The notes under the pieces: generated by a model
Told to the model about the DNA's origin: nothing
Seen by the model: the letters and a program-made list of their open reading frames with translations, nothing else
The model's database searches: none
Part shown: one piece after another, positions 40,146 through 63,537 of the stretch
How the letters are laid out: the number at the start of each line of letters is the position of its first letter
How positions within the stretch are numbered: the first letter of the stretch is position 1
Translations under genes and position numbers: made by a program
Assembly: GCA_038065235.1 (NCBI GenBank)
Contig: JBBTRK010000005.1
Location: forward strand, 22,389-86,388
Length of the DNA: 64,000 nucleotides
Origin: Patescibacteria group bacterium
GTDB lineage: Bacteria > Patescibacteriota > Patescibacteriia > PEXW01
Direction of reading: 5' to 3'

Positions 40146-40147
40146 GG

Positions 40148-43599: not shown

Positions 43600-43630
43600 A
43601 GGCGGCATTGCTACATATATCGTCAATCAT

Positions 43631-44038
43631 ATGAATTCCAAAAATATCATAAAATACATTTGCATAGTGATATTACTTTTCTTTGCGGTCATTGATATAG
43701 TCGCACTGTTTACCAGTATTACCTCTGGGTACCTTACTTGGTCATTCTCAAGCGAAACAAAATCTTTTGTTTTCACGTTGATAAGTTTGAGTTTGTATAT
43801 TCCAGTACTCTTTGGTATTTGGAATCTTAAGAAATGGGCAATCCTGCCGTTGGCTGGGCTAACTATATTTGGCCTCATTCTTGCCATAGCATATCCGCCG
43901 GCGTATCTCAGCGGAAATATTATTAATAAGTTGTCTAATCTACCACCAGATTTATTCATTGGTATAGTAGTCTTGGCAGTCTACTATTTTGTGCTACGGC
44001 AAAAAGTTGTTTCTAACCAACTCACTTCAAAATTATGA
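43631..44038 (+). CDS. Small 4-TM membrane protein in an AT-rich patch.
   Basis: GC content visibly lower than the flanks. Hydrophobic segments. Confidence 0.45.
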   Translation: MNSKNIIKYICIVILLFFAVIDIVALFTSITSGYLTWSFSSETKSFVFTLISLSLYIPVLFGIWNLKKWAILPLAGLTIFGLILAIAYPPAYLSGNIINKLSNLPPDLFIGIVVLAVYYFVLRQKVVSNQLTSKL

Positions 44039-44153
44039 CCACCCTCGTCCTTCGATGAAAGATGGCGCAGCAATCGTCTGGCCAGCCATGCTGGTGTACC
44101 ATGCCTTGCAATTCCTCTATACTCACTAAGCTTCACATTCACCCCGATCTCCT

Positions 44154-44780
44154 ATGGCAACGAATATCGTCGACTCTGGGAAAGCATTCCGTTACGGCTG
44201 GGAGTCCTTGAAGAAGGACTTCTGGTACTTCATTGGTATTTCGGTGCTCTACCTGGTTATTACCAATTTACCAAGTAGTGGGAAGGGGAATAGCTTGGGC
44301 ATTCTTGGTATCTTCATCAGTGCCTGGCTCGCAGGTGGCTTGTATCGCATCTTGCTAGATTACAAGGACGGCAAGAAGCCGGAGATCACCGTACTCTTCA
44401 CCCAGTTCAAGCAGTTCTGGCGCATCCTTTTGGGTATGCTTTTGCTGTTGCTCATCGTCGCCGGCGGGTTTATCCTGTTCATTGTGCCGGGCATTATTTT
44501 GGCCATCAAGTACCAGTTCACTATTTTACTCATCATCGATAAGGACATGCAGGTCATGGATGCCTTGCGTGCCAGCGGGGAGATGACCAAGGGCATCAAG
44601 AGTCAGCTCTTCATGTTCGGCCTGACGGCAATTGGCGTCATGATTCTTGGGTTCATTGCTTTGGGTGTGGGCGTTATAGTTGCCATGCCTGTGGTGTGGC
44701 TTGCGCAAGTGTGGGTATACCGCAGCTTGGCAGCACCAGCGGTCCCAACGCCAGATGTTCCAACACCAATAAAGGTCTAG
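44154..44780 (+). CDS. Integral membrane protein (DUF975-like?).
   Basis: Multiple TM helices. Confidence 0.45.
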   Translation: MATNIVDSGKAFRYGWESLKKDFWYFIGISVLYLVITNLPSSGKGNSLGILGIFISAWLAGGLYRILLDYKDGKKPEITVLFTQFKQFWRILLGMLLLLLIVAGGFILFIVPGIILAIKYQFTILLIIDKDMQVMDALRASGEMTKGIKSQLFMFGLTAIGVMILGFIALGVGVIVAMPVVWLAQVWVYRSLAAPAVPTPDVPTPIKV

Positions 44781-44938
44781 ATACTTCGTCTTTCCGCAAA
44801 ACCCGCCAGCCAGCGGGTTTTGTATTTCATCGGGGCAAGCTGGTATTCCTATTGTGTTTTTGCAGAAATTCAGTAGCATTATTGTCAGAAAAAGAAAACT
44901 AACTATCTTGAAAACCAAAAGGAAGGAGGGTAACCACC

Positions 44939-45316
44939 TTGAAAATACTTGGTAAACACCTGCTGGCAGAGCTCACCGGCTGCAATGTGGCGGTGCTGGA
45001 TGACCTGGAAAAACTCCAGAACATCTTCAAAACCGCTGCCGAAAAGGCTGGCGCGACTGTGGTGAACGCCACTGCGCACCGTTTCTCCCCGCACGGCGTG
45101 TCCGTGGTCGTGGTGATTTCCGAATCCCACGTCTCGGTGCACACCTGGCCAGAGTACGCCTTCGCGTCAGTAGACTTCTACACCTGCGGTGAGAAGGTTG
45201 ACCCCCACAAAGGGCTCGACTACATCCGGCAGGAGTTGGGTGCTACCGACGCGCACGTGCAAGAGATTGCACGGGGTATTCCTTCTTCTATTGAGGAGAA
45301 GCTTGCCCACAAGTAG
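44939..45316 (+). CDS. speH: S-adenosylmethionine decarboxylase proenzyme (class 1B, pyruvoyl).
   Basis: ESHVSVHTWPE (Ser cleavage site) and the typical ~125-aa size. Confidence 0.85.
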   Translation: MKILGKHLLAELTGCNVAVLDDLEKLQNIFKTAAEKAGATVVNATAHRFSPHGVSVVVVISESHVSVHTWPEYAFASVDFYTCGEKVDPHKGLDYIRQELGATDAHVQEIARGIPSSIEEKLAHK

Positions 45317-45509
45317 CTAGTGGTTCATTCAAAGGCTTGAACAATTTGTTCAGGCCTTTATTTTTACCCCCTTTCTAACCCCCACTCACACGAATGCGGG
45401 AATAAAAAGAGTGGGCATCCGTTTGGATACCCACGTTTGCCGAATGGCGCGGCTTCTTATCCGCATGCTCACTATGATGTGAGGCTATGCATTACACCGC
45501 GGTTCGGGT

Positions 45510-45764
45510 TTAGGAGCGCTTGGTGCGCTTGCGTTCATCTTTGGCCTTCAGGAAGGCCGGGAGATTCGCACACGCTTTTTCAAGCATTGCATGTACGTGC
45601 TGATCGTACTCATCGCTCGAATGCCCATTTTGGCCGAGAATGAACTTTTGATACTCACTGGTTCTCCGACCGATTTCGTTCAATCCATCCTCTACCATGA
45701 AGCTCATGATAGTGCTGACAACGAACAGTTCGGCCGCGGCTTCTCTTGTTATTGGCTTAGCCAC
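45510..45764 (-). CDS. Small hypothetical protein.
   Basis: ORF only. Confidence 0.35.
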   Translation of the reverse strand: MAKPITREAAAELFVVSTIMSFMVEDGLNEIGRRTSEYQKFILGQNGHSSDEYDQHVHAMLEKACANLPAFLKAKDERKRTKRS

Positions 45765-45832
45765 ACAATCACCTCCTTTCAGGCTGTTTTAGGTGACAGG
45801 AAAATCTATACCAAAATGTAGCATTTGTCAAT

Positions 45833-45897
45833 GCCAACCCCGCTTGCCGACCGAAGCTCTAATGAGCGAAGGCTGGGGGCAGAGGGGTGGGGGAATT
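45833..45897. repeat. GC-rich palindromic repeat, family A, copy 1.
   Basis: ccaacccc...ttgccgaccgaagc...gcgaaggctgggggcagaggggtggggg. Confidence 0.7.
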
Positions 45898-45932
45898 GTT
45901 AGTAAAGCAGTTGCGGCTAAGCGTAAACATTC

Positions 45933-46658
45933 TTGACGTTATGTGTGGAACCTGGTAATTTTTTCAACCACGTTCTTTCCCATAACCAATCAGTGAAACG
46001 GAGGTACCCGTTGAGCAATCGAATTCTTGGCATGTGGTTACGTTACCTGTGTATAATACCTGGCCTACCGCCACGTGGTGATCTATCGACCGCGGATGTG
46101 GTACTGGTGCAGGCTTTCGGTCGCAACCAGTACCCCGACAGCGAGCTCGATCACATTACTGATCTGCATGTTGCGTACGGTAAGCAGGATGCCGTAACGA
46201 TAGCAAAGTTACGCGAACAAGGCTTTGATCCTGGTCAACCAAACCGAGACCTCGCTCTGGCTTGCCAGCAGCTAGTGGACACGTATGGTATTGCAGCAAT
46301 TGTCCAGTGGGAGGTTACCGTCGCCTTTGATCCCGCGTGGTACGCCGCGCACCGCAACCGCATTGTCAGTCTGTGGCCGACGGCGGAGTACTTTTCTACT
46401 AGGCTGGTGCAAGAGCACAGCCTGCGGGTGATGCAAGAGCACGGGTGGACAAAGCCCATTGAGCTGGCGCATAGCTGGCAAATCGTTCGCGCCTTCCTCA
46501 TTGTGAGGAAATTATTTGGCCATGAACCTATGGTCAGCTCCGAAACCATACGATGCTTTGATTCGAAATCCGTCCAATGGTGGACGAGGTCCAAGGTTAA
46601 ATGGTTAGCATACGAGTGCTTGGCGCGTGTCCATCATGTGTTGTATCGCTGGGTGTAA
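45933..46658 (+). CDS. Hypothetical protein.
   Basis: ORF only. The start may be an internal ATG. Confidence 0.4.
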   Translation: MTLCVEPGNFFNHVLSHNQSVKRRYPLSNRILGMWLRYLCIIPGLPPRGDLSTADVVLVQAFGRNQYPDSELDHITDLHVAYGKQDAVTIAKLREQGFDPGQPNRDLALACQQLVDTYGIAAIVQWEVTVAFDPAWYAAHRNRIVSLWPTAEYFSTRLVQEHSLRVMQEHGWTKPIELAHSWQIVRAFLIVRKLFGHEPMVSSETIRCFDSKSVQWWTRSKVKWLAYECLARVHHVLYRWV

Positions 46659-46705
46659 CGGAAGGTCTTTGAAACCGGCCCCAATTTTGGAGCCGGTTTT
46701 TCTTT

Positions 46706-46784
46706 TCCCCCAACCCCCCCCCTATCGGCCGAAGTCCCGCGCATGCGGGACGAAGGCTGAAACCCCCCCCCGCCCCCGGGGTAG
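46706..46784. repeat. Family A-like GC palindrome with long C homopolymers and an inner tcccgcgcatgcggga palindrome.
   Basis: Seen directly in the sequence. Confidence 0.6.
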
Positions 46785-46861
46785 AGAATATTTTGGCATT
46801 GTATTCTTTGATTGGTACACTACTGTGCATCAACGCACTTCACACTTATGAGCGCATTATT

Positions 46862-48016
46862 ATGAATCCTATTCGTCGGTTTGGCGCTTTACTAGCGATC
46901 GTGGCTGCAGTAGCAGTCATGCTTTTCCCTTTGGCTAGCGTTCGAGCGCAAGCCAACGAAGAGTCGTTCAAAGCGAAAGTGGTGGAAGTCCTTGAGAACA
47001 AAACCACTCCAGAAGAAGAAGGTGCGGCCCTACCCCAGCAGAAGTTGCAGCTGCAAGGCCTTTCTGGTACCTGGAAAGGGAAGAGCATCATCTTCGACGG
47101 TACGAAGTATGAGGTCATGTCGGCGAGTAGGTACGAAGTCGGTGATGTCGTCATGGTTAATGTATCTGCAGACGCAGATGGGAATAAAGAATTCTTCGTC
47201 GTCGACTACGTCCGGCAGAACTCGCTCTACTGGCTCGCAGCACTTTTCGCATTAGTGGTTGTCGTTGTGGGCAGGCTCAAAGGCCTGCGCGCACTTGCCG
47301 TGCTGCTGCTGACTTTCGTGGTCATCCAGAAGTTCATCGTGCCAAGAATCCTCGCCGGTGATAACCCGCTCGTCATTAGCATTCTTGGTGCGTTGGTTAT
47401 CCTCGGCATTGCAATCTACATTACGGAAGGCTTCAAGCGTTCCTCTACTATTGCCATTGGCTCGGTCCTGCTCTCGCTCATTATCACCGGCCTGCTGTCT
47501 ATTGCGTTTACCGCCGCAGCGAAGCTCACGGGATTTGCAAGTGAAGAAGCCATTTACCTCAAAGGGCTCTCTGGGGTGGACATTAACGTGCATGGCTTAC
47601 TACTCGCCGGCATCATCATCGGTACCCTGGGGGTTTTGGATGATGTCATTATTTCTCAAGTGATGGTGGTAGAAGAATTGAAGCACGCAAACCGTAGCCT
47701 GACGAATCGCACCGTCTTCGCAAAAGCAATGCGGGTGGGCATTGGGCACATGAGCGCCTTGGTGAACACGCTCTTCCTCGCCTACGCCGGGGCATCGCTG
47801 CCACTCCTCTTGCTCTTCAGTGTTCGCGAGGAGCCGTTCCTGACGTTTAATCAGGTCATCAACAACGACATGATCGCTACAGAAATTGTCCGTACGCTCA
47901 CGGGCAGCATTGGCATTGTCCTCGCCGTACCGATTGCCACAGCACTAGCAGTAAAATTTATAAAAGCAAGTAAAGGTGGGGATACCGAGGTTGCCGACAG
48001 CACCCACCGGCACTAA
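46862..48016 (+). CDS. YibE/F-family membrane protein.
   Basis: Signal/TM, an extracellular domain, then multiple TMs with a GVLDDVIIS motif. Confidence 0.5.
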   Translation: MNPIRRFGALLAIVAAVAVMLFPLASVRAQANEESFKAKVVEVLENKTTPEEEGAALPQQKLQLQGLSGTWKGKSIIFDGTKYEVMSASRYEVGDVVMVNVSADADGNKEFFVVDYVRQNSLYWLAALFALVVVVVGRLKGLRALAVLLLTFVVIQKFIVPRILAGDNPLVISILGALVILGIAIYITEGFKRSSTIAIGSVLLSLIITGLLSIAFTAAAKLTGFASEEAIYLKGLSGVDINVHGLLLAGIIIGTLGVLDDVIISQVMVVEELKHANRSLTNRTVFAKAMRVGIGHMSALVNTLFLAYAGASLPLLLLFSVREEPFLTFNQVINNDMIATEIVRTLTGSIGIVLAVPIATALAVKFIKASKGGDTEVADSTHRH

Positions 48017-48047
48017 CTGAAACCTTTTTGGTTCGGGTTCCCCCCAA

Positions 48048-48127
48048 CCCCCTTGCCGACCGTAGCTTACTTGCCGTCCGAAGCTTTAGCGTAGGAAGGG
48101 GCGCAGGCTGGGGGCAGAGGGGTGGGT
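48048..48127. repeat. Family A repeat, copy 3.
   Basis: ttccccccaacccccttgccgaccgtagctt...ggctgggggcagaggggtggg. Confidence 0.7.
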
Positions 48128-48164
48128 TTTGGCGTTCACTTCTTCAGCCTGGTAGACTAGGGGC

Positions 48165-48655
48165 ATGACCCTATTGCCCGCGGAGACGATTAGGGTCAGA
48201 ATGTTATTTTTTTGGGTTATGTAAAAACCGCTCGGGGATTGAGCGGTTTTGAGTAATACGGTATTTGGGTTACTTTCACATTAGCCGGCGAAAGCTTGGA
48301 TGGCCGCAGCGCAGGCTGCAATAATGAGCATAATGGTTACGGAAATTGCAGAGCAAACAAAAAGGATCAGGGTTACGTGCAAGAGTTTTGCCCGATAGTA
48401 CTTCCCAGCGCTTTCGGCAGTAAAAAGTAAGGCCCAGCTTATCACGACTCCAGCGCAGCTAATGGGGATTAAGAACAGCCACGCCCACCAATAAGCAGAT
48501 ATAAAATTTATCAATGTTGCCTCCGTTGGTTTTCTCAAACCTACACCCCCAGCTTGAGTAGTCAATAGCTTGCACGTACAATACAGGTATGAACCTCATG
48601 TCATCTTTGAATAGTGAACAAAAACAGGCGGTTACGCATGCGTCCGGCCCGCTGT
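48165..48655. repeat. Left copy of a 491-bp perfect direct repeat.
   Basis: Identical to 53606-54096 (atgaccctattgcccgcggagacg ... gcgtccggcccgct). Confidence 0.9.
48281..48514 (-). CDS. Small 2-TM membrane protein, left duplicate copy. Probable TTG start after GGAGG; the ORF track extends it to 48565.
   Basis: MINFISAYWWAWLFLIPIS... A highly hydrophobic ~77 aa. Confidence 0.5.
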   Translation of the reverse strand: MINFISAYWWAWLFLIPISCAGVVISWALLFTAESAGKYYRAKLLHVTLILFVCSAISVTIMLIIAACAAAIQAFAG

Positions 48656-48671
48656 TAATCGTTGCTGGTGG
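48589..48671 (+). pseudogene. Duplicated 5' fragment of the UvrD-like helicase gene.
   Basis: MNLMSSLNSEQKQAVTHASGPLLIVAG is identical to the start of the 54031 gene, then diverges before Walker A. Confidence 0.75.
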
Positions 48672-48755
48672 AGAGATATTGTTAGGTAGGCCACGAAAGT
48701 CGACACACGAAAGTCGGCACTTGATATTCTGTATTACTTTGGGTAGAGTATCTCT

Positions 48756-49031
48756 ATGCTCTTACACGTAAATGTACCCCTCTCCATTTTCCGCGAAGGT
48801 AAGCGTTTTGTGGCCTTTACCCCAGCACTCGACCTCTCTACCTCTGGCAAGTCCCTTGCCGAGGCAAAGTCTCGTTTTTCCGAAGCCGTCCAGCTCTTCT
48901 TTGAAGAGTTAGAACGGATGGGGACAGTGGACGAAACACTTTCCGATCTCGGCTGGCACAAAGCCGAGCGGAAGTGGCAAGCGCCCCAGCCAATTTTTCA
49001 AGATACACAGCGGGTGCAAGTCGCGGTGTAA
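48756..49031 (+). CDS. hicB: HicB-family antitoxin (UPF0150 fold).
   Basis: FVAFTPALDLSTSGKSLAEAKSRFSEAVQLFFEELE matches the HicB N-domain pattern. Adjacent to hicA. Confidence 0.65.
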   Translation: MLLHVNVPLSIFREGKRFVAFTPALDLSTSGKSLAEAKSRFSEAVQLFFEELERMGTVDETLSDLGWHKAERKWQAPQPIFQDTQRVQVAV

Positions 49032-49035
49032 TTTT

Positions 49036-49266
49036 ATGCCGCGCGTCACGCCGGTACACTGGAAGCGCTTTGAGAAGTTTCTCCTCTACGTTGGTTGCAC
49101 GTTCGTTCGAGAGAAAGGTGACCACCGCATCTACACGCGGGATGGTTTATCGCGCCCGGTTGTTGTCCCCCGCGACACGCAGCTGCCGATATTCATTATA
49201 CGGAATAACTTACGCGTCCTTGGTATTTCGACGGACGACTACTTGCAAATTTTAGACCGCGTGTAG
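49036..49266 (+). CDS. hicA: HicA-family mRNA interferase toxin.
   Basis: WKRFEKFLLYVGCTFVREKGDHRIYTRDG...VVVP fits the K..L...GW...R.KGSH..F HicA pattern. Confidence 0.7.
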   Translation: MPRVTPVHWKRFEKFLLYVGCTFVREKGDHRIYTRDGLSRPVVVPRDTQLPIFIIRNNLRVLGISTDDYLQILDRV

Positions 49267-49352
49267 CAGGTTCCTCGTATGGCCCTATTGCCCATGCGCT
49301 AGGGGATTTGTTTATGCTTCCGAGCGCAGCATCTCCAAGCTGCGCTCTCTCC

Positions 49353-49392
49353 ATTCCCCCAACCCCCGCCCGCCCCAGGGGGCAGAGGGATT
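49353..49392. repeat. Family A repeat, short copy.
   Basis: cccccaacccccgcccgccccagggggcagaggg. Confidence 0.6.
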
Positions 49393-49481
49393 GACAAAGC
49401 GTAGTATTTCTAGTACATTGTATTGTTCCTAGAAAAAGTACAAAGTACCCTGACAATATTCACACAGAAAGGTGGAATTTC

Positions 49482-50468
49482 GTGCAAAAAGACCCAGTTG
49501 TTTACTTGGGCGAGGCATGGCGTGATGCACATGCCGTCGCGGTTCTGGATCATCAACGAGTCGTTGCAGAAAAGCAACTGGCTCGTACGCTCGTCCAAGA
49601 CGAAGATGTCATGGGCGAACGAGTTCTTTACGGTTGCACAGTGCAAGTGCCAGTTGGCATCGCACATGCAGATCGTGCTGTAGAATCTGCTTCTACCGAG
49701 TTTGAGCTTGTTCAAGCAGAGGCAGAACAGGCAAAAGCATTCGAATGCGAATGTCTGACGGAGACCGGTATAGCCCCGCTAGCAGTTGTACCGACGAATA
49801 TATGGGAACAGGTGACCAAGGCCTGGGGGTTGGTGAGGTTCGAATACCTGGAGCACTCCCGCGCCTACGCGCGTACTGTCAGCGAGCCGCCAATGCCTTC
49901 GGAGACTCGTAGAGCTGCGTGGATGTACTCCATTTCTGCTTGCATTGCACTGTGCATGGTCGCCATTCTGGCGATCGTTGCATCGGTATACTGGTGGGGT
50001 GCCGCATTCGTTGCTGTGTTTCTTTCCTGGTGTGCCTATGTTCTGGTTCGCGAGTACCGCACAAAGTCAAAAGCGCGTAGTGCATACGAGCAGCGTAAAC
50101 AGACACCGGGAGGGTTCGTTTCCGAGCTCTGGCCAGATGGGCATGACTATTACGAGTACCTCGTTCGAATGTCTGATTTCGGTGAGTTCTGCCAGCTTCC
50201 CGTAGCGTTTCCAAACGCACCCAAGAGCTTTGTTGAGAAGTTGCTTCGGTTAGAATCCAAGAGGGTACATTGCTGCATTGCCGCCGCCCCCGAAGCAATT
50301 CACGTCAAGCTTAGCGAAGCAAGACCGGCACCGAATGCCGATCCCATACTGTATATCAAGTCTCCATGCGGAGGCTTCGTAGCAGTCCTCGACCGCTTCG
50401 GTAACTTCGAAAATGAAGCGCGTGCCGTCCAGCAAGCGCAAGACATCACGGCACAGTACTACGCCTAA
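49482..50468 (+). CDS. Hypothetical protein with two central TM helices.
   Basis: GTG start after AAAGGTGG. Confidence 0.45.
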   Translation: MQKDPVVYLGEAWRDAHAVAVLDHQRVVAEKQLARTLVQDEDVMGERVLYGCTVQVPVGIAHADRAVESASTEFELVQAEAEQAKAFECECLTETGIAPLAVVPTNIWEQVTKAWGLVRFEYLEHSRAYARTVSEPPMPSETRRAAWMYSISACIALCMVAILAIVASVYWWGAAFVAVFLSWCAYVLVREYRTKSKARSAYEQRKQTPGGFVSELWPDGHDYYEYLVRMSDFGEFCQLPVAFPNAPKSFVEKLLRLESKRVHCCIAAAPEAIHVKLSEARPAPNADPILYIKSPCGGFVAVLDRFGNFENEARAVQQAQDITAQYYA

Positions 50469-50522
50469 CACCAACATTCGTTGTTTGATGACCAGCACCC
50501 TAAAAAGTGCTGGTTTTCTTTT

Positions 50523-50633
50523 TCCCCCAACCCCCTTGCCGTCCGTAGCTTTCTTGCCGACCGAAGCCTTGGCGAAGGTCGGAGCGTAGGACGGTGGCGT
50601 AGGTCGGTGCGCCCCGAGGGAGGGGGCAGCGGC
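50523..50633. repeat. Family A repeat, expanded copy with internal cgtaggWcgg sub-repeats.
   Basis: tttcccccaacccccttgccgtccgtagctttcttgccgaccgaagc...gagggagggggcagcggccc. Confidence 0.7.
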
Positions 50634-50678
50634 CCAGGTTGACGCCCACTTTCGGCTGGCGTACACTAGTTTTTACTT

Positions 50679-50951
50679 ATGTCTGCCCCAACTACTGAAT
50701 ACCTAGACCAGCGTTTTGAGCGCCTGGAATTAGCTACGCAATCTATTCTGACCGAAATGCGTCAGCGGTTTGCTGACCATGACGCCCGTTTCCAGCGTAT
50801 TGAAGCAACCTTAGCAACCCTTGTAGAATCCGTTGATCGTTTTGCAAAAATTTACACCGATCTAAACCAGGAAGTCGTGGTTATGCGGCAACAGCTTCGC
50901 GACGTGGAATCGCGTGTGGGGAAACTGGAGCTCAAGTTGAAGACAGCGTAA
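50679..50951 (+). CDS. Small coiled-coil hypothetical protein.
   Basis: ORF followed by a terminator hairpin. Confidence 0.45.
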   Translation: MSAPTTEYLDQRFERLELATQSILTEMRQRFADHDARFQRIEATLATLVESVDRFAKIYTDLNQEVVVMRQQLRDVESRVGKLELKLKTA

Positions 50952-51085
50952 TTATTCATTTTCTGGCAAACCCCGAGCATCCGCCCGGGGTTTTCTTTTT
51001 GCCGAATTTTCCCCCACCCCCAACCCCCGCGCCCCGGAACGTAAAACAAAAAGCCCAACTCTCGTGAGTTGGGCCAAAAGTAATT

Positions 51086-51313
51086 TTACTTTTTCGTATC
51101 GCCCTTCTTCGTGCATTCGACGCTAACCTTCAGCCGCCACTGTGCACCGCAGCGCGTGCAGGTAAAAGTCTTTTTGCCATCGACGAATACGACTGGCTTG
51201 CCACAGTGGCATGCCTGGGAGGGGATAGGCGTGAAGAGATGACCTATTTCCAGAATCAACCTCTCGCCGGCAGTTTGAATCACTTTTCTTAAAGAGCTAG
51301 TTTCGCTTGCCAT
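51086..51313 (-). CDS. Small zinc-ribbon protein.
   Basis: CHCG...CTRCG. Confidence 0.45.
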   Translation of the reverse strand: MASETSSLRKVIQTAGERLILEIGHLFTPIPSQACHCGKPVVFVDGKKTFTCTRCGAQWRLKVSVECTKKGDTKK

Positions 51314-51384
51314 GTAAATACCTCACTTTGTATGTGACTTTGTTTAACGGCTTACTGTAGCTAGGTAAGCTGCCTTTGTCAACC

Positions 51385-51466
51385 AAACCCCGCGCCCCCG
51401 CCCCAGGGGAGGGCAGAGGTCCGCCCGGCACGCCTACGGCGCAGCCGTGGCGGACGGGGGTGGGGG
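51385..51466. repeat. Family A repeat copy. A partial copy also lies at 51009-51037.
   Basis: caaaccccgcgcccccgccccaggggagggcagagg...gggggtgggggat. Confidence 0.65.
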
Positions 51467-51540
51467 ATAACCTGTTCACAAGCTAGCCCTTGCCGTTTGC
51501 TGTGGGAAAGCTAAAATAGTACTTATTTTAAAGTTATTGT

Positions 51541-52335
51541 ATGACTTCTGATAAAGAGTTTAATAAGGCAGCGCTGACAGCCGTAATATGCGCATTCATA
51601 ATCATGACATTTGTATTATTGTGGCGTTCTGGGGTGGATATAAGGTGGGCTGATGTACTAATTAATTTGTGTATAGCGTTACTTACAGCAATAATTTCAA
51701 TATTCGCCGCATTTGCTTTGTATAAGAGAGGGAAGAAAGCTGAGCAAAAAAGAGTGTTCGCAAACTTTAAACTGCTGTTTGCCGCATTTGTTTCAGAGAC
51801 TAATGACAATTTAGGTATACTAGTGTCATATCAAAAATCTGTAACGACAGATTCAATTTCGCATTTTAAAATGCTAACTGAAGTAATATCTAAAATAGTT
51901 ACTAACCATTTAATCTATAAACATTTAAGTGAGGAGCATGTAGTAGCAATTCGTTACGCACTTCATAAATACTTAGAGCTAAATAGCTATCTTGAAATTT
52001 TGATGCCGATTTTTTATGAGGGGAAAATTACTGAGCATTTAGTAAAACAGTTGCAGTTAGATGCAAAGAAAGTCAGGTATTATGCACTCGTTTTGCAGAA
52101 TTTAAACCAGGTTGCATTAAATGTGCTTGACGTTAGGTGGGTACCAAGTACAGATACTAAGTTGTTATATATGGATTTGTTGAAAAATGAGCCTAAGGAA
52201 GACGATCTTGAAAAATTTATTGATAAGTTGAAAAGCCATATAGAAATTGAGAAAAATATTAGCGCTCAACAAAAAGCGATTTCTAAAAAGAACTATTTAG
52301 CCGCAATGGAGAGGTACGAGAAAAAGTTAGAGTGA
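51541..52335 (+). CDS. AT-rich hypothetical protein with an N-terminal 2-TM anchor.
   Basis: Strongly AT-rich relative to the flanks. Confidence 0.55.
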   Translation: MTSDKEFNKAALTAVICAFIIMTFVLLWRSGVDIRWADVLINLCIALLTAIISIFAAFALYKRGKKAEQKRVFANFKLLFAAFVSETNDNLGILVSYQKSVTTDSISHFKMLTEVISKIVTNHLIYKHLSEEHVVAIRYALHKYLELNSYLEILMPIFYEGKITEHLVKQLQLDAKKVRYYALVLQNLNQVALNVLDVRWVPSTDTKLLYMDLLKNEPKEDDLEKFIDKLKSHIEIEKNISAQQKAISKKNYLAAMERYEKKLE

Positions 52336-52433
52336 ATCACGATACCTCACCTCAAGGGGCACATCAGTTACACCCGGCCATATGGTTTATTGTAAAGAGC
52401 TTAGAATATGAGCTCACATAACGCATAGATATT

Positions 52434-53180
52434 ATGAAGAAAGGGACAAAAATTTCGATACGTCTCAACCCCTACGTTTTTTTATATTCTGAAGCAAAGT
52501 TCTTTTTAGAGCACAGCAGTGTTAGTAGAGACTCTAAAAATGTGACCGATCTTATTAAGCGTTCAAAATTTGCAAGAACGAGCATAATTCTGTTCCAAGC
52601 TACGGTGGAATCAATACTTCGGTGGCTTCTTTTTAATGGCGCAATAAAAGGTATTTCAATGAGTTTAAAGAAAAAAATCGACCGAATGGATTTCAAGACC
52701 CGATTGGTTGAAATCACGAACGCTAATTGTAAAAAAATAAAGGTGTCTAATTTTCAGAAATACAATCACTTACTAGAAATGGCTGACCTAAGAAACAGCA
52801 TAATTCATCAAGAACATCTTCAAATGCAAGGCACCGTGGAAACTTTCGATAAAGTAAACAATAAAATAAAGATCCACCTAATTTCACGGAGTGAATTTTA
52901 TACTCATTCAAAACTCCAGAAGAATGTCAGACTCGTTGACTATTTTGATGCAATAAAAAGTAACGAAATTGTAGACGAGTTTGTTGATTGGTTGAAAATC
53001 AATCTTAAACGCCCAGAAGACTTTATCAACACGTTTAGCATTGTTGCCCATAATATAAAATCTAGAAGCCGGAAATTAAAAATCGGTTCAAGTTTACAGA
53101 TTGAAATTAAAGGTAGAGGAGAAGATCTCATCGATATGGCTAGCTATTGGCCAAATACAAAAATGACTTTTAGATTGTAA
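52434..53180 (+). CDS. AT-rich hypothetical protein with an RNxxxH (HEPN-like) motif.
   Basis: EMADLRNSIIHQEH. AT-rich. Confidence 0.55.
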   Translation: MKKGTKISIRLNPYVFLYSEAKFFLEHSSVSRDSKNVTDLIKRSKFARTSIILFQATVESILRWLLFNGAIKGISMSLKKKIDRMDFKTRLVEITNANCKKIKVSNFQKYNHLLEMADLRNSIIHQEHLQMQGTVETFDKVNNKIKIHLISRSEFYTHSKLQKNVRLVDYFDAIKSNEIVDEFVDWLKINLKRPEDFINTFSIVAHNIKSRSRKLKIGSSLQIEIKGRGEDLIDMASYWPNTKMTFRL

Positions 53181-53319
53181 TCTCACACCCTATTTTTTGG
53201 CATCTCCTATCCTGCCTGGTAGACTAGGTACATGACCCTATTGCCCCAAGAAAAATAGTTTTTGTTTGAAAAAAAGCCACCCGTAGAGAGTGGCTTGCAT
53301 TTTGCAACGATGTTTTTGC

Positions 53320-53532
53320 TCATGTCGCCGTGAGGGCGTGTACTCCTGCAATTATCAGTAGTACTACTGAGCTTGCACCGACCAGAAAGAACATAGAAAA
53401 AAGAAAACCCAGGAATCTTTGGTATTTTATACTCATCAGCGAGATGACGCTGAAGTACATTCCCAGTACGCCCAGTAACCCAATGATTCCCGTGAGAATC
53501 CAGACCCACCAAAGCGCTGTTATTAAATCCAC
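53320..53532 (-). CDS. Small 2-TM membrane protein, paralogous to the 48281/53723 genes.
   Basis: MDLITALWWVWILTG... AGGAGG RBS. The upstream region is similar to the paralog's upstream region. Confidence 0.55.
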   Translation of the reverse strand: MDLITALWWVWILTGIIGLLGVLGMYFSVISLMSIKYQRFLGFLFSMFFLVGASSVVLLIIAGVHALTAT

Positions 53533-53605
53533 ATTTTCCTCCTTGTGTTTTCTTCAACCTACACCAGCCGCTTGAGTAGTCAATGGCTAGCACCTGCAAT
53601 GAGGC

Positions 53606-54096
53606 TATGACCCTATTGCCCGCGGAGACGATTAGGGTCAGAATGTTATTTTTTTGGGTTATGTAAAAACCGCTCGGGGATTGAGCGGTTTTGAGTAATA
53701 CGGTATTTGGGTTACTTTCACATTAGCCGGCGAAAGCTTGGATGGCCGCAGCGCAGGCTGCAATAATGAGCATAATGGTTACGGAAATTGCAGAGCAAAC
53801 AAAAAGGATCAGGGTTACGTGCAAGAGTTTTGCCCGATAGTACTTCCCAGCGCTTTCGGCAGTAAAAAGTAAGGCCCAGCTTATCACGACTCCAGCGCAG
53901 CTAATGGGGATTAAGAACAGCCACGCCCACCAATAAGCAGATATAAAATTTATCAATGTTGCCTCCGTTGGTTTTCTCAAACCTACACCCCCAGCTTGAG
54001 TAGTCAATAGCTTGCACGTACAATACAGGTATGAACCTCATGTCATCTTTGAATAGTGAACAAAAACAGGCGGTTACGCATGCGTCCGGCCCGCTC
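53606..54096. repeat. Right copy of the 491-bp direct repeat. It carries the genuine 5' end of the helicase gene.
   Basis: See the left copy. Confidence 0.9.
53723..53956 (-). CDS. Small 2-TM membrane protein, right duplicate copy.
   Basis: Identical to the 48281..48514 copy. Confidence 0.5.
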   Translation of the reverse strand: MINFISAYWWAWLFLIPISCAGVVISWALLFTAESAGKYYRAKLLHVTLILFVCSAISVTIMLIIAACAAAIQAFAG

Positions 54097-57000
54097 CTTA
54101 TCGTTGCCGGCGCGGGGACGGGCAAGACCACCGTCGTCACCCAGCGCATTGCCTGGCTCATTGCCGAAAAGAAGATTAAGCCTGACCACATCCTCGGGTT
54201 AACGTTCACGGACAAAGCCGCCGGGGAACTGGAAGAGCGCGTGGACAAGCTGCTGCCCATGGGCTACGTGGATTTGTGGGTGAGCACGTTCCACAGCTTC
54301 TGCGAGCGCATCCTGCGGGATCACGCCCTGGACATTGGCCTTAGCCCCGACTTCACCTTGCTGGATGAGACGGACCAGGCCATTCTGATGCGCGAGCACC
54401 TGGAGCAATTCGACTTGAGCTACTACCGGCCGTTGGGCAACCCGACGAAGTTCGTGTCCAGCCTCATCAAGCACTTCAGCCGGTGCAAGGATGAAGCAAT
54501 TCGGCCAGAGGAATATCTGAAATACGCAGAAAAGTTACGGCTGGATTTGGATCAGGTGCATGGGCGCAAAAAGCATTCGCAGGATGAAGACAAGGATGAA
54601 ATCGTTGAAGTAGACAGGATAAACGAAATTGCGAACGCGTACCACACCTACCAGCAGCTCCTGTTCCAGAAGGGGAGCCTGGACTTCGGCGACCTCATCA
54701 CGCAGACGCTCTATCTCTTCCAGCAGCGGCCCAAGATTCTGGAGCGCTACCGCAAGCAGTTCGAGTACATCCTGGTGGACGAATTCCAGGACACGAACTG
54801 GGCGCAGTACGAGCTGGTGAAGTTGCTCGCTGCCCCGCAGAACAACCTGACCGTGGTGGGGGATGATGACCAGAGTATCTACAAGTTCCGCGGCGCCAGC
54901 GTGGCCAACATTCTGGCGTTCAAGACGGACTTCCCCAAAGCCAAAGAAGTGGTGCTCACCCAGAACTACCGCAGCACGCAAAACATTCTGGACTTGGCCT
55001 ACGACTTCATCCAGGCGAACAACCCGAATAGGTTAGAGGTGCAGCTTGGTAATACACCCCCCCTTACCCCCCCTTCGAAAGGGGGGGAGGGTGAGGGAGC
55101 CAAGAAGCGTGGGCGACGGAAAAATTCCGCACCCCAATTATCTCCCTCTTCACAAGGGGGAGAGGGAGGGGGTCGAGACAAGGCCTTTGCGATTAGCAAA
55201 AAGCTTTTTGCTCAAGAGCAAGGCACCGGTACAATAGAGTATTCCATTGCACCGATTCTGGAGCAGGAAGCCACTGGCGCAGTGGAGAAAATCCTGGAGC
55301 TCAAGAAGAAGAAAGGCACCAGCTACAACGATTTTGCCATTCTGGTGCGCGCCAATGATTCGGCGCAGCCCTTCATCCAGCGCCTGAAAGCCGCGGACGT
55401 GCCGTTCCAGTTCGTGGCCACGGCCGGGCTGTACCGCCAACCCATTGTGCTGGACATCCTCAACTACCTCAAGCTGCTAGATAACTTCCACGAGAGCGCC
55501 AGCTTGTACCGCATGCTCACCCTCCCATCCCTGTGCATTCCCTTGCAGGATGTGATGAGCATGATGGCTACAGCGCGGCGGGAGACCAAGTCGCTGTACG
55601 AAGTGTCCAAGAACGTCCGTGCGCTCACCGGGATGCAACCCGAGACAATCGCGGCTGTGGAAAAACTTCATGGGTGGCTCGAAGCGCACGGCCAACTGGC
55701 GCGCACGCAGCCCGTGGGTGAAGTGGCCTTGAAGTTCTTGGAAGACTCGGGTTTGATGAAAGACCTCACCAGCTCCACAGACGCTGACCACTTGGAAGTG
55801 GTGAACTACATGAACCAGCTGTTCCAAGTGTTCCAGAGCTTCCAGATGCGGCACGAAGAACCGACGGTGAAGAATTTTTTGCACGAATTAGCTTTCGCCC
55901 AAGACGCGGGCGATTCTGGAAGTCTGCGGCCGCCCGAATGGGAGCAAGGCCCAGAGGCTGTGAAGCTCATGACCATTCACAGCGCCAAAGGCTTGGAATT
56001 CCCGTACGTGTTCATTGCGAACTTGGTTGATAAGAGATTCCCCACAATCGAGCGCCGCGACGCCATTGAACTACCCGATGATCTCGTCAGAGAGAAACTT
56101 CCCGAAGGGGACTGGCACTTGCAAGAAGAGCGACGCCTCATGTATGTGGCCATCACCCGCGCCAAGCAAGGCGTGTTCTTCACGGCCGCGGAAGACTACG
56201 GCGGCACGCGCAAGAAAAAGCCCTCGCGCTTCATTGAAGAGCTTGGCCTCAAAGCCAAACCGTTCAAATTAAAGGGTGGATTGTTGGATAAGCAAAAGGC
56301 GCCTGCACGTCAAGAAAATGACGCCGAATTACTGCGTAAAGCACTGCCCCCGTACTTCAGCTTCACGCAGTTGAAGGCGTTTGAGAAATGCCCTAAGCAG
56401 TACAAGTACGCCCACTTGCTGAAGATCCCGGTGCCAGGGCATGCCACGTTGAGCTTTGGCCAAACCATTCATAACACCTTGCTCAACTTCTTCAAGCTGG
56501 CACGCGAGCGCGGCATGGCCGGTCAGGCTGATTTGTTCGGCAAGAAAGACCAGGCCACCAGCGGCCCGCCTGTTACCTGGGCCGAGCTGCAGCAAATTTA
56601 CCAAGCCAACTGGCAAGACATGTGGTACAGCAGCATGGCGCAGAAGACGGAGTACAAGCACCGCGGCGTAAAGTTCCTCAAAAACTTCTACGATTCTCTC
56701 CCAACACCGTGGCCACAACCAACCGAGCTGGAAAAAGGTTTTACCATTGTCATCAACGGCCATAAAGTAAAAGGCAAGATTGACCGCATTGACCCCAGCA
56801 CTGGCGGCATAGAAATTATTGACTACAAGACCAGCGAGAAACCGCCAGCAGAAAACAAAGCCGATTTGGAACAGCTGCACATTTACGCTATGGCCGCGCG
56901 CGAAGCGCTTGGACTCAATCCGGTGAAGCTCACCTTCATTTACCTGGCCGCCGAAAAACCCTTTAGCTACCCAATTGACGAAAAGGCCATTGAGAAAACC

Positions 57001-57123
57001 CGCGCCGAGATAGGGGAGACCATTGAGGCAATTTTGAAAAGTGACTTTGTTGCCACGCCGAGCAAGTTCACCTGCGTATCCTGCGATTTTCGAAATATCT
57101 GCGAGGATAGGTATAGAGGGTAA
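54031..57123 (+). CDS. UvrD/PcrA-like superfamily-1 helicase fused to a C-terminal RecB-family (PD-(D/E)xK, Cys-cluster) nuclease domain.
   Basis: Walker A AGAGTGKT, DEFQDTN, and the helicase motifs. C-terminal IIDYKTS and CVSCDFRNICEDR. Confidence 0.9.
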   Translation: MNLMSSLNSEQKQAVTHASGPLLIVAGAGTGKTTVVTQRIAWLIAEKKIKPDHILGLTFTDKAAGELEERVDKLLPMGYVDLWVSTFHSFCERILRDHALDIGLSPDFTLLDETDQAILMREHLEQFDLSYYRPLGNPTKFVSSLIKHFSRCKDEAIRPEEYLKYAEKLRLDLDQVHGRKKHSQDEDKDEIVEVDRINEIANAYHTYQQLLFQKGSLDFGDLITQTLYLFQQRPKILERYRKQFEYILVDEFQDTNWAQYELVKLLAAPQNNLTVVGDDDQSIYKFRGASVANILAFKTDFPKAKEVVLTQNYRSTQNILDLAYDFIQANNPNRLEVQLGNTPPLTPPSKGGEGEGAKKRGRRKNSAPQLSPSSQGGEGGGRDKAFAISKKLFAQEQGTGTIEYSIAPILEQEATGAVEKILELKKKKGTSYNDFAILVRANDSAQPFIQRLKAADVPFQFVATAGLYRQPIVLDILNYLKLLDNFHESASLYRMLTLPSLCIPLQDVMSMMATARRETKSLYEVSKNVRALTGMQPETIAAVEKLHGWLEAHGQLARTQPVGEVALKFLEDSGLMKDLTSSTDADHLEVVNYMNQLFQVFQSFQMRHEEPTVKNFLHELAFAQDAGDSGSLRPPEWEQGPEAVKLMTIHSAKGLEFPYVFIANLVDKRFPTIERRDAIELPDDLVREKLPEGDWHLQEERRLMYVAITRAKQGVFFTAAEDYGGTRKKKPSRFIEELGLKAKPFKLKGGLLDKQKAPARQENDAELLRKALPPYFSFTQLKAFEKCPKQYKYAHLLKIPVPGHATLSFGQTIHNTLLNFFKLARERGMAGQADLFGKKDQATSGPPVTWAELQQIYQANWQDMWYSSMAQKTEYKHRGVKFLKNFYDSLPTPWPQPTELEKGFTIVINGHKVKGKIDRIDPSTGGIEIIDYKTSEKPPAENKADLEQLHIYAMAAREALGLNPVKLTFIYLAAEKPFSYPIDEKAIEKTRAEIGETIEAILKSDFVATPSKFTCVSCDFRNICEDRYRG
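55055..55172 (+). repeat. In-frame GC-rich palindromic insertion within the helicase ORF.
   Basis: CCCCCCC-TTCGAAA-GGGGGGG and tccctct...agaggga hairpins. Encodes the low-complexity stretch NTPPLTPPSKGGEGEGAKKRGRRKNSAPQLSPSSQGGEGGG. Confidence 0.6.
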
Positions 57124-57200
57124 TTAAAGTTGTCATGCCGGACTCGATCCGGCATCTTGCCGCAAGGCCCCGGGTCTGACGCCCGGGGCGACATAAATGA

Positions 57201-57749
57201 GTGAAGCTTATGCAAGAAGAACTTTTCGACGCCTGCGACGAACAAGGCAACCCAAAGGGTGAGCGGGTAACCCGTGCAGACGCGCACACCAAAGGAATTT
57301 GGCACCACACCGTGCACCTGTACCTGGTACGGAAGGTGGGGGATGACTTCGCGTTCCTCATGCACCTTCGAGCAAAGACCAAAGACTTGAACCCGGACAA
57401 GTGGGACACGCGCTTCGGCGGACACGTGCTTGCGGGTATGAGCATCGCCGATACCGCTCGCCGAGAACTCAAAGAAGAAGTTGGTTTGAACTTGGAGTAC
57501 TATAAAATAGTTGAAGGTGTTGTAACGAAACGTGACAATTTTCCAAATAGGGAATTTACTCACACATTTTTTGTTGAGGTTCCAGAAGATGTCCCAGTAC
57601 AATTCGAAGACGGTGAAGTGCAGCGCGTGGAGTGGATGACGGCAAAGGAAATTATTGCTTCAATGCAAACCAAGTCTCGCCCGTGGGCCGGGAGTCTGCA
57701 AGGCTTCCAAGAAACGCTGAAGGTTTTGCAGGAGAGGTGGAAGGGGTAG
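57201..57749 (+). CDS. NUDIX hydrolase.
   Basis: Nudix box GGHVLAGMSIADTARRELKEEVGL. Confidence 0.8.
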   Translation: MKLMQEELFDACDEQGNPKGERVTRADAHTKGIWHHTVHLYLVRKVGDDFAFLMHLRAKTKDLNPDKWDTRFGGHVLAGMSIADTARRELKEEVGLNLEYYKIVEGVVTKRDNFPNREFTHTFFVEVPEDVPVQFEDGEVQRVEWMTAKEIIASMQTKSRPWAGSLQGFQETLKVLQERWKG

Positions 57750-58190
57750 TGTTATTTGTCATGCCGGAGAGCACATCCGGCATCTTGTAGTTGCACTGAA
57801 GTGCGACCTAATGTTTTCCAGTTGATGGTGTTCCATCACGTGAATGCCACCCTTTCTTGGTGGCAAGAAAGGATGTAGCCCAAAGAAGCCAGCAGGGGGA
57901 ATCGATTCGCACACGAGAAGCACGCCATCCCATTTGTTGGATGGGCTCAGCGATTCCCCCTGCACCCGAATGCTAAACAAGTTTTCTCTTTTCCCTTTGA
58001 TCAACCGTGATTCGATGACATGAACCGTATAAACGTTTGGTCGTTCACCCGTATAACCCAGAGATCCCGGATCGGAGTCCGGGATGACAGTAAATGAGCA
58101 TTGCGTTGTACTATAATTGACACTATTACAGGAGGAGTATACTAGGGCGACATGAGCGTACGTGCTGGGTGTGGCTAACCTTCCCGCACT

Positions 58191-58763
58191 ATGGCAGTTT
58201 TCCTCGGGGTCATTGTGGTCATAAGTCTCTTCGTCGCAGCGATTGCGCTGTGCACGGCGCTGGTTGGCTTTGGCGCATGGCTGCGGTGGCGCATTGCACT
58301 GCTGCCGCATATGCGCCAATCTTCCGACTTGCGTACGTGGTACAAGCGCGAGAAGGTGAAAGACGATGACCGCCGCAACATGCAGCGCATGGCATTCGGT
58401 ATGGTCTTCCTCATCGTGCAGGTTCCTTTTTTCATTTTCTTCGAGCAACGCACATGGCCATTCCGAACGGTGCTGCTCGGCCTTGGTGTCTACTTAGCAC
58501 TCCGGGGAGTGTACGGCCACTGGCTCGGTGGTCGAGCGCGGTTGGAGCGTCATGTCACAGAAAAAGCATCGACAGCACACCATGCATTTGATTTACTGAC
58601 GCCCGAGGAGGGTGCGCGCTCGAGAGAGATCATGATGCGGCTCTTCACCGCTGAGCGAATTATTCGCCTGGGCGGGTATACAATCTTGGGTGTAGGCTTC
58701 GTGGCAGCCTTAGTGTGGGACGCTGGGGCTGGTGGCGCCCTGCCTTCGCTCGTGCTACCGTAA
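58191..58763 (+). CDS. Hypothetical integral membrane protein.
   Basis: 4-5 TM helices. Confidence 0.5.
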   Translation: MAVFLGVIVVISLFVAAIALCTALVGFGAWLRWRIALLPHMRQSSDLRTWYKREKVKDDDRRNMQRMAFGMVFLIVQVPFFIFFEQRTWPFRTVLLGLGVYLALRGVYGHWLGGRARLERHVTEKASTAHHAFDLLTPEEGARSREIMMRLFTAERIIRLGGYTILGVGFVAALVWDAGAGGALPSLVLP

Positions 58764-58785
58764 CTATAGAAAGGAGACGGGGCGT

Positions 58786-59082
58786 ATGGGTTTTACCCCG
58801 ATTAAGTACACGCTAAACCGTAATATTCAATCCTCTGGCCTGCAGGATCAGGTTGACGGCGCTCGAGTCATTGAGCTCTTTTCTTCTATTGTGGCGGAGG
58901 TGATTGGCGAAGGTATTGCCCAGAAAGTGAAGGGCCTCTACCTGAAGAATCGGACACTCACCGTGTCGGTTCCATCCCCGGTCATCGGCCAAGAAATCAA
59001 ATTACACGAGAATGCGATTGTGGACGCGCTCAACAAGAAAATGGAGGTCGTGGTGGTCGAGCGGTTGAGGTTTTTGGCATGA
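58786..59082 (+). CDS. DUF721 (DciA/RemB-like) small protein.
   Basis: AAAGGAGA RBS. ARVIELFSSIV...LYLKNRTLTVSVPSPVIGQEI pattern. Confidence 0.45.
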   Translation: MGFTPIKYTLNRNIQSSGLQDQVDGARVIELFSSIVAEVIGEGIAQKVKGLYLKNRTLTVSVPSPVIGQEIKLHENAIVDALNKKMEVVVVERLRFLA

Positions 59083-60669: not shown

Positions 60670-60679
60670 CGAACTTCAT

Positions 60680-61165: not shown

Positions 61166-61168
61166 TTC

Positions 61169-63523: not shown

Positions 63524-63537
63524 TTCCACCATTCCGT

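Follow-up and report, generated by a model that had tools for sequence, protein, structure and literature searches.

Apparent copies of a helicase promoter and its first codons delimit a variable gene islet in a groundwater Patescibacteria bacterium

A 64,000-nucleotide (nt) stretch of a Patescibacteria genome (GenBank assembly GCA_038065235.1, contig JBBTRK010000005.1, positions 22,389–86,388; hereafter, the window) carries a 5-kb islet with a toxin–antitoxin pair and foreign-looking genes, located directly upstream of a gene encoding a UvrD/PD-(D/E)XK helicase. The islet is bracketed by a perfect direct repeat of 489 bp (R) and is missing from other contigs that are otherwise the same. The explanation that we favour, with moderate confidence, is that serial recombination at the 5' end of the helicase gene stacked cassettes at this site, and that the present presence or absence of the islet arises by homologous recombination between the two copies of R. 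The samples are from Hainich groundwater, and the nearest named relatives are Patescibacteria, Candidatus Kerfeldbacteria. Patescibacteria (the candidate phyla radiation, CPR) have tiny genomes with few recognisable mobile elements and, to our knowledge, the gain and loss of their accessory genes are poorly understood. The locus is a natural and currently polymorphic case, in which the same aquifer population occurs with and without the islet, and earlier events can be traced unusually well, each having left behind a helicase promoter with the first five helicase codons.

The two copies of R differ at no position. Their identity begins exactly at the first base of a 15-nt motif, with none to the left of 48165, and R contains a terminator, a small gene (U), a promoter (P_U), and the first 65 nt of the helicase open reading frame (ORF). 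The right edge of copy 1 (48653|48654), in contrast, is an abrupt junction in codon 22 of the helicase and lacks the motif. The unique part of the islet and one R together form a unit of 5,442 bp.

The 15-nt motif, ATGACCCTATTGCCC (the core), occurs exactly at 48165, 53232, and 53607 (48165–48179, 53232–53246, and 53607–53621) and with one mismatch (ATGGCCCTATTGCCC) at 49279–49293, just past the hicA stop codon. Only 0.10 matches with up to two mismatches are expected per window by chance, and at least four matches were found in 0 of 100 shuffled sequences. A preliminary description of the window had reported the three exact sites in the arrangements X–core–Y, X–core–Z, and W–core–Y, and all three are located where it placed them. 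It had also described a shared core of approximately 15 bp with swapped arms; the core stands, but the Y arm is not short, as identity continues from the first core base for 489 bp at 100%. The X arm is a 53-nt block, with 79% identity between 48127–48179 and 53194–53246 (repeat family D7), and CCTGGTAGACTAGG precedes the core at 48148–48161 (site 1) and 53215–53228 (site 3). The core at 53232–53246 is followed by CAAGAAAAATAG. At 53607–53621, the left flank of the core differs from that of the other sites; this W flank (53535–53606) is 78% identical to 48517–48588 (repeat family D2) and is thus a paralogue of the helicase promoter region rather than unrelated DNA. The likeness of X–core–Y to W–core–Y, which had been taken for that of attachment (att) junctions, is thus a perfect 489-bp duplication whose other edge has no core. 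The att interpretation is partly supported, but the motif is probably not a dedicated att core. The short palindrome TAGGG-GCATGA-CCCTA was considered as an Xer/dif- or lox-like core and rejected, because strand exchange would then occur at the ATG, not at the observed +15 boundary. The only tRNA gene in the window (31754) is unrelated and was rejected as an integration target.

The islet is absent from L001 (ENA ERZ1300416; L numbers denote the relative contigs that were fetched), a 177-kb contig that encodes exactly the same helicase protein. L001 matches the window at 38587–48665 and 53603–64000 and has one R, this only copy being placed at 9577–10065 by calculation from the aligned blocks. 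Across flanks of approximately 20 kb, and leaving aside a spurious overhang of the alignment, its sole difference from the window is a 2-nt CC indel at 46763–46764, in a C-run upstream of the gene for the membrane protein YibE/F. The earlier suggestion that more than one recombination event has occurred at this locus is supported. The 5,442-bp unit is missing from a contig with flanks that are otherwise identical, so that the two form an empty-site/occupied-site pair. Both L001 and L099, which are short-read contigs, have one copy of the repeat and identical flanks, as an empty site with a single copy would. The occupied arrangement was found at 100% identity in L002, L098, and L004, of which L004 reads W–R–helicase unbroken and L002 and L098 span X–R–islet. 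It was also found in L003 (contig_2308, 1.09 Mb), which is colinear with 46001–58000 and, judging from the contig name and an indel-rich profile (35 gaps in 12 kb), appears to be a polished long-read assembly. When the YibE/F protein was looked up, both arrangements were present in several contigs and samples among the matches listed. The occupied allele is therefore secure, and the empty allele, which rests on short-read contigs, is likely to be real. Short-read assemblies stop at the edges of the repeat or leave a gap across it: L005 is a stand-alone contig corresponding to 48599–53661 (the unique islet with 55-nt overlaps), L100 ends at 48164, and L002 bridges the second copy of R with 100 N. 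As a practical warning, the 489-bp repeat breaks or misleads short-read assemblies at this spot.

Two further contigs join other DNA to this locus. L014 (ENA ERZ1292636, well H32; 875 bp) follows the window from the end of R copy 2 (54095) back through the gene U', a paralogue of U, to 53247. Precisely where the core has its 3' edge (53246|53247), it switches to 26 nt, TGAACGCCAACAAAAAATAAAATAGG, of which no copy was found in the window or in any fetched locus, and it is possibly a further structural variant with this breakpoint. L013 (Logan ERR2809145), which covers 53163–53789 of the window and has 280 nt of ~68% GC joined at 53163, was rejected as a real variant and treated as a chimeric contig. 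We take its GC-rich flank to resemble part of a panD (aspartate decarboxylase) gene of another organism.

The nature of the core became apparent from the helicase genes of relatives, 583 of which were found in Patescibacteria and other metagenome-assembled genomes. In L018, the helicase is 88% identical and starts with cTGgTAAACTatgagtATGACCCTTCTGCCATCTCTGAAT (MTLLPSLN...), which is ~80% identical to the X-core over 30 nt; L018 also keeps an X-core stub (…CTGGTAGACTAGGGGCATGACTTTATTGCCC) 590 nt upstream, with a 107-amino-acid (aa) ORF in between. L015 contains the X-core, approximately 90 nt, and then CATCTCTGAATGAC, and if the ~90 nt that follow TTGCC were deleted, X-ATGACCCTATTGCC and ATCTCTGAATGAC / ATCTCTGAAT would again form an uninterrupted gene. 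In L095 and L102, the X-core is followed by a third U paralogue (U''), P_U, and then ATGACTCTCATGCCATCT. The helicases of other relatives start with ATGACTCTCATGCC, ATGGCCCTAATGTC, or ATGCCCCTCCTG, and those of more distant relatives with ATGGCCCTAATGTCATCT, ATGGCTCTTATGTCA, or ATGCCCCTCCTG. Because these starts match the core, it corresponds to the ancestral start codon of the adjacent helicase and the four codons after it (five in all: ATG ACC CTA TTG CCC, encoding MTLLP). X, in turn, has the form of a sigma-70-type promoter of the helicase start. Its second copy in the window (X') has the pattern TTGGCA / 17 nt / TAGACT with an upstream TG and was listed with the TG by a promoter scan (53197–53225), and P_U has the pattern TTGAGT / 17 nt / TACAAT. 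In both X and P_U, the −10 element ends 6 nt before the ATG, and the promoter in L020 (TGcTAGAAT-accccc-ATG) has the same geometry and no Shine–Dalgarno sequence, suggesting that the helicase mRNA is probably leaderless.

In total, the window contains five displaced promoter/5' stubs (48127, 48554–48653, 49279, 53194, and 53535; Table 1) in addition to the working helicase start. Stub 1 is 88% identical to L015 7869–7928. Stub 2, in which P_U occupies 48554–48582, is cut at 48653|48654 and continues toward hicB within a mechanical ORF (48589–48771), and the right flank of stub 3 is of the type that follows the core in L095. Stub 5 meets the second copy of R at 53606|53607. Outside the window, X-core modules were present in the related contigs L015, L018, L095, L097, and L102. 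The putative gene U belongs to a family of few members with the N-terminal motif WWxW; it was not called by the gene callers in L001 or L004, and U' was called as a gene in L003, L004, and L011–L014. A profile search with the U family identified three further proteins, two of which led to new contigs (L102 and L103), although context was gained from L102 only. A U-like gene was located 5' of the helicase in just 1 of 74 more distant relatives, indicating that U is specific to this clade.

The S-adenosylmethionine (AdoMet) decarboxylase gene and the helicase are separated by a different segment in each lineage compared (the window, L001, L015, and L102). This segment consists of a 241-aa gene, YibE/F, X, and U in L001; hicBA, three other ORFs, and X in L015; and purD, three ORFs, X, and U'' in L102. 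When the U units were aligned, they showed conserved ends, ~53 nt (X-core) and ~85 nt (P_U) in length, and a middle that had diverged past recognition. At its left edge (TTTTGG), every copy of the module borders unrelated DNA, and the right flanks fall into four classes, (a)–(d): GCGGAGAC, CAAGAAAA, CGCACCAG, and ATGC(A/G)CTAGG. Of the 53 positions compared, neutral promoter spacer included, X' shares 51 with the L095 module. As modules that are nearly identical even in a neutral spacer have unrelated flanks, the breakpoints at this recurring position are real and not merely the limit of sequence constraint.

In the mechanism that we favour, the proposed target of recombination is the 5' end of the helicase gene. 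Incoming DNA carrying its own promoter and helicase 5' end would recombine repeatedly into the gene, and each event would push the resident promoter and 5' stub upstream and trap cargo between the stubs, such as U, U', HicAB, and genes of foreign or defence-like appearance. The latest layer would be the 5,442-bp unit bounded by R. One edge of R, at the core, may have arisen by a crossover or template switch guided by 15 nt of identity between a donor-type start, P_U'-ATGACCCTATTGCC, and a resident X-core stub, and the other edge would be an illegitimate join in helicase codon 22. Such a duplication could originate from a one-sided homology event, as in homology-facilitated illegitimate recombination, or from replication in which the template was switched twice, with the core guiding the second switch. 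Loss of the islet would proceed by RecA-type loop-out between the copies of R, yielding the empty allele and a predicted 5,442-bp circle, and the reverse reaction would re-insert it. No circular form was seen in the contigs, which stop at the repeat. Since perfect repeats of 489 bp suffice for homologous recombination, no enzyme encoded by the element is required. The repeat structure, the two alleles, the homology of the core to helicase starts, and the lack of a detected recombinase are direct observations; leaderless promoter function, the order and mechanism of the older events, and the direction (gain or loss) of the recent one are what we infer. DNA uptake is a plausible route of cassette exchange, given that the window encodes a ComEC-type channel, split at 20923–22894 into an ORF with a Competence domain (PF03772, E = 1.8e-54) followed by an ORF with a metallo-beta-lactamase domain.

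Several observations weigh against serial displacement as the whole explanation. The main fact that it leaves unexplained is the fixed breakpoint: the right flanks of X' and the L095 module are unrelated from the very nucleotide after TTGCCC, whereas random illegitimate joins should scatter, so that a fixed boundary points to a site-specific process or a hotspot. In addition, a 32-nt run that begins with CCTGG and closes with the last base of the core shows no difference among four lineages with helicase genes ~10–14% divergent in nucleotide sequence, suggesting that the stubs may still be functional. Finally, a 489-bp repeat on both sides of a segment could, in principle, lead an assembler to omit that segment, which bears on the short-read contigs of the empty allele. 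If the fixed breakpoint reflects an enzyme, it would define a new capture site; if there is no enzyme, the locus is a clean case of island building by homologous and illegitimate recombination in a naturally competent lineage.

Site-specific integration of cassettes is a credible but unlikely alternative. Here, the X-core module or its edge TTGCC|C would be an attB-like site acted on by a recombinase encoded elsewhere or on a helper element, and circular cassettes without an integrase, with a promoter and a look-alike of the helicase start as attP, would insert serially, as in integron or tycheposon arrays. This would account for the stub/cassette boundary falling at the same nucleotide in at least four unrelated cassettes, with the right junction also the same (|ATCT...), for the left module edge TTTTGG that abuts unrelated DNA in every copy, and for the exact departure of L014 from the window at 53246|53247. 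Imperfect direct repeats of ~30 nt flank the L018 cassette, and the module is conserved beyond the expectation of neutral drift. However, recombinases were detected neither in the islet nor in the rest of the 64-kb window, and none was located next to the X-core in L015, L095, L097, and L102. All islet ORFs were scanned with four profile libraries (Pfam, PADLOC, PHROGs, and NCBIfam), which detected no recombinase, integrase, transposase, or replication/packaging family but only HicA and sub-threshold matches, and inspection by eye detected no recombinase among the longer ORFs of the window outside the islet. Moreover, the recent 5.4-kb unit has the core at one end only and a repeat as long as 489 bp, with the inverted arms TAGGG / CCCTA on either side of GCATGA, strand exchange would be expected at the ATG instead of +15, and only about six independent copies of the module are known. 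The stronger form of this idea seems quite unlikely to us. In it, the ~53-nt promoter–start module of a leaderless helicase gene is a true attachment site, and integrase-less cassettes with genes for small membrane proteins, toxin–antitoxin systems, and defence were inserted serially at one nucleotide, either through a pathway that depends on transformation or by the action of a recombinase encoded elsewhere. If true, it would constitute an integron-like gene-capture platform in the ultra-small Patescibacteria.

We consider it very unlikely that the X-core is a working portable promoter, driving either a short RNA convergent with U, similar to a type I toxin–antitoxin system, or a downstream cassette, and spreading as a mobile promoter. 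The conservation of the −35, −10, and +1 to +15 positions while the spacer varies is consistent with this idea, as are the hairpin or terminator ~30–70 nt downstream at all four sites in the window and the L018 cassette ORF, which is located downstream of X on the same strand. Flank types (a) and (d) can pair with the core as a 5' hairpin (GACCCTA...TAGGGTC and CCCTA...TAGGG), but no such hairpin was predicted for types (b) and (c) or for L015, and the z-scores of the folds were modest (−2.6 to +0.6). As only two of the four flank types are predicted to form the 5' hairpin, a conserved hairpin or small RNA was kept as no more than a minor alternative. The short ORFs starting at the core are not conserved past MTLLP, an E-value scan of 47500–54500 against Rfam gave only one chance-level match, and, since the core is homologous to real helicase starts, its sequence can be accounted for without invoking any new function. 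Typical type I toxins are smaller than U, which at 70–77 aa and with several hydrophobic segments exceeds them. Putative mobile promoters, meaning promoter sequences reused 5' of unrelated genes, were reportedly described by Nijveen, Matus-Garcia and colleagues in 2012; the present module resembles them in being promoter-sized and in having several copies with unrelated flanks, but differs in that all copies belong to a single locus and extend over the first five codons of a single gene. As a separate observation, 48165–48250, 49279–49350, and L095 are each predicted to form one hairpin at the 5' end and a terminator hairpin after it; this arrangement is like that of a small RNA, is convergent with U, and recalls type I toxin–antitoxin systems.

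An assembly artefact, in which the islet and the duplicated 489 bp were wrongly threaded (e.g., from a separate 5.4-kb circle with R in common with the chromosome) or the empty contig results from path collapse, is highly improbable: R does exceed any k-mer, short-read assemblies break at its edges (L005, L100, and L002), and the assembly graph is the same for an integrated unit and for a chromosome plus a circle, but L003, with an error profile typical of long reads, is colinear with the window, the junctions are spanned in L004, L002, and L098, both alleles recur in several contigs, and stubs 1, 3, 4, and 5 and their relatives in other species are independent of the repeat.

Among known systems, serial recombination as favoured here recalls Campbell-type integration and excision (single-crossover merodiploids and their loop-out), in which identical direct repeats likewise flank the unit, the empty allele keeps one of them, and no recombinase of the element is needed. 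Unlike in that system, one repeat edge here falls on a 15-nt motif that has several copies, and the other is a join of the illegitimate type within a coding sequence. The islet does not resemble an insertion sequence or transposon, having no transposase in the profile scans, no terminal inverted repeats (a repeat-family analysis of the window found no inverted repeats at the ends of the unit), and a duplication of 489 bp. Compared with an integrase-borne element, the direct repeats are present and perfect over 489 bp, but the 15-nt core is at only one repeat edge, and profile scans of the islet found no element-encoded tyrosine or serine recombinase. A plasmid or phage origin was considered and rejected: blastn searches of the islet against PLSDB and INPHARED gave no match, and the motif, the 328-aa protein, and the 248-aa protein of the islet were not found in IMG/VR. 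Integron arrays (IntI, attI, and attC) share promoterless or single-gene cassettes stacked by a fixed site with a recurring junction module. However, neither IntI nor another integrase was found in the scans of the islet and window, no hairpin was conserved across the sites in the folds, the junction is a promoter and start codon instead of a folded attC with R and L boxes, and the cassettes are in mixed orientation.

The tycheposons of Prochlorococcus (bioRxiv 10.1101/2020.12.28.424599) form islands at the ends of tRNA and tmRNA genes, with partial copies of the target between stacked elements. In the window, too, adjoining cassettes are parted by partial copies of the target gene, in the form of the five helicase promoter/5' stubs that delimit them; newer cassettes would push older ones inward, and degenerate older stubs are scattered. 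The target here, in contrast, is located in a gene for a protein, the helicase, where it comprises the promoter and the first five codons, and is not a tRNA or tmRNA end; no tyrosine recombinase or replication/packaging module was found in the islet, and the cassettes comprise one to few genes. Arrays of orphan immunity genes and toxin tips at type VI secretion system (T6SS), Rhs, and contact-dependent inhibition (CDI) loci have been explained by homology-facilitated illegitimate recombination (PMC5361080). Similar to those arrays, the conserved part of a gene would serve as the homology anchor, the resident module would give way to each newcomer and leave remnants behind, growth would proceed without a mobile-element gene, and natural transformation is a plausible route, ComEC being encoded in the window. 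Their geometry is mirrored to the 5' side, however, as the constant part (the helicase body) is downstream and the stubs and promoters pile up upstream, and the model for those loci does not predict the stub boundary at a fixed nucleotide seen here.

Table 1. Features of the helicase-proximal region (window coordinates)
Feature	Position	Strand	Description
YibE/F membrane-protein gene	46793–48016		
GC-rich hairpin repeat	between YibE/F gene and stub 1		
Stub 1 (X-core)	48127–48179	+	−35 TTGGCG, 18-nt spacer, extended −10 TGgTAGACT, 6 nt, ATGACCCTATTGCCC (MTLLP)
Direct repeat R, copy 1	48165–48653		489 bp, 100% identical to copy 2
Hairpin CCGCTC/GAGCGG	48223–48250		Flanked by A-run and T-run, between stub 1 and U; read from sequence
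Gene U, copy 1 (putative)	48281–48514	−	Small hydrophobic protein, 77 aa; TTG start 5 nt after GGAGG
Stub 2	48554–48653	+	Duplicate of P_U (TTGAGT, 17 nt, TACAAT, 6 nt, ATG) and first 65 nt of helicase ORF
Islet, unique part	48654–53606		4,953 bp; missing in empty allele
hicB-like gene and hicA	48756–49031 and 49036–49266	+	Toxin–antitoxin pair
Stub 3 (degenerate)	49279–49293	+	ATGGCCCTATTGCCC then ATGCGCTAGGGG
Cargo, 328-aa protein	49482–50468	+	Only weak matches below family cut-offs
Cargo, 90-aa coiled-coil-like protein	50679–50951	+	Only weak matches below family cut-offs
Cargo, 264-aa and 248-aa proteins	51541–53180	+	32–36% GC vs. ~50–58% around
Stub 4 (X'-core)	53194–53246	+	−35 TTGGCA, 17 nt, TGgTAGACT, 6 nt, ATGACCCTATTGCCC
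Terminator	53274–53296		
Gene U'	53320–53532	−	70 aa; paralogue of U, 26% identical
Stub 5 (W-core)	53535–53621	+	P_U'-type promoter (78% identical to P_U) joined to ATGACCCTATTGCCC
Direct repeat R, copy 2	53607–54095		Holds U copy 2 (53723–53956, −), P_U (53996–54024), and working helicase start
Helicase gene	54031–57123	+	1030 aa; UvrD-type with C-terminal PD-(D/E)XK nuclease domain

The helicase matched PF00580 (E = 8.5e-85) as well as PF13361 and PF12705. The hairpin between stub 1 and U is likely to be a bidirectional terminator; it was predicted by folding and was not listed by a simple terminator scan. The HicAB cargo has the arrangement of a type II toxin–antitoxin system, with a HicA domain (HicA_toxin, PF07927; E = 1.6e-9, 38.2 bits vs. 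a cut-off of 27) and a small gene upstream in the antitoxin position. The 91-aa product of the latter gave no family match and is named HicB by position only. The pair is 93% identical in nucleotide sequence to L015 4881–5439. Upstream of it, the 21 helicase codons of stub 2 run into a 60-codon junk ORF that overlaps the start of hicB (48554–48771), and the duplication may have placed the first operon of the islet under a copy of the helicase promoter.

The AT-rich pair at 51541–53180 consists of a 264-aa protein with N-terminal hydrophobic segments and a 248-aa protein with an R-N-x-x-x-H motif (LRNSIIH), and only sub-threshold matches (PycTM and BT_3535-like) were obtained for them. This two-gene module was probably acquired recently from a foreign source and may be a defence pair. 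Homology of the 248-aa protein to a 216-aa protein of L095 was considered and rejected, none being detectable. In L097 (JGI Ga0172379_10000253), a contig that ends ~300 nt past its X-core module, the region at 398–1805 directly beside the module encodes a SMODS nucleotidyltransferase (E = 1.2e-28) and a SLATT_4-like protein with two transmembrane segments (E = 1.1e-4, 22.4 bits, below the Pfam cut-off of 27), which suggests a pair resembling a cyclic-oligonucleotide-based antiphage signalling system (CBASS). In several lineages, defence genes may thus accumulate beside the helicase start.

GC-rich imperfect-hairpin repeats (…CCCCCAACCCCCTTGCCGACCG…GGCTGGGGGCAGAGGGGTGGG) were found at nearly every gene boundary of the variable region (45834–45894, 46692–46718, 48038–48129, 49341–49390, 50509–50603, 51001–51033, and 51439–51467), and they also flank hicBA in L015 (4808–4893 and 5457–5522). 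All five exact copies of CCCCCAACCCCC in the window fall within 46.7–51.0 kb. The fold energies of these repeats were no better than those of shuffled sequences; they may be terminators or substrates of recombination for cassette shuffling. Within the helicase ORF itself, 55056–55172 contains two short GC-rich palindromes in frame, ccccccttaccccccc ttcgaa agggggggagggtgaggg and ctccctcttcacaagggggagagggaggggg, which encode …PPLTPPSKGGEGEG…SPSSQGGEGGG…. The alignment with L015 breaks at approximately 55095–55197, and this segment looks like a repeat element inserted into the coding sequence with the frame kept.

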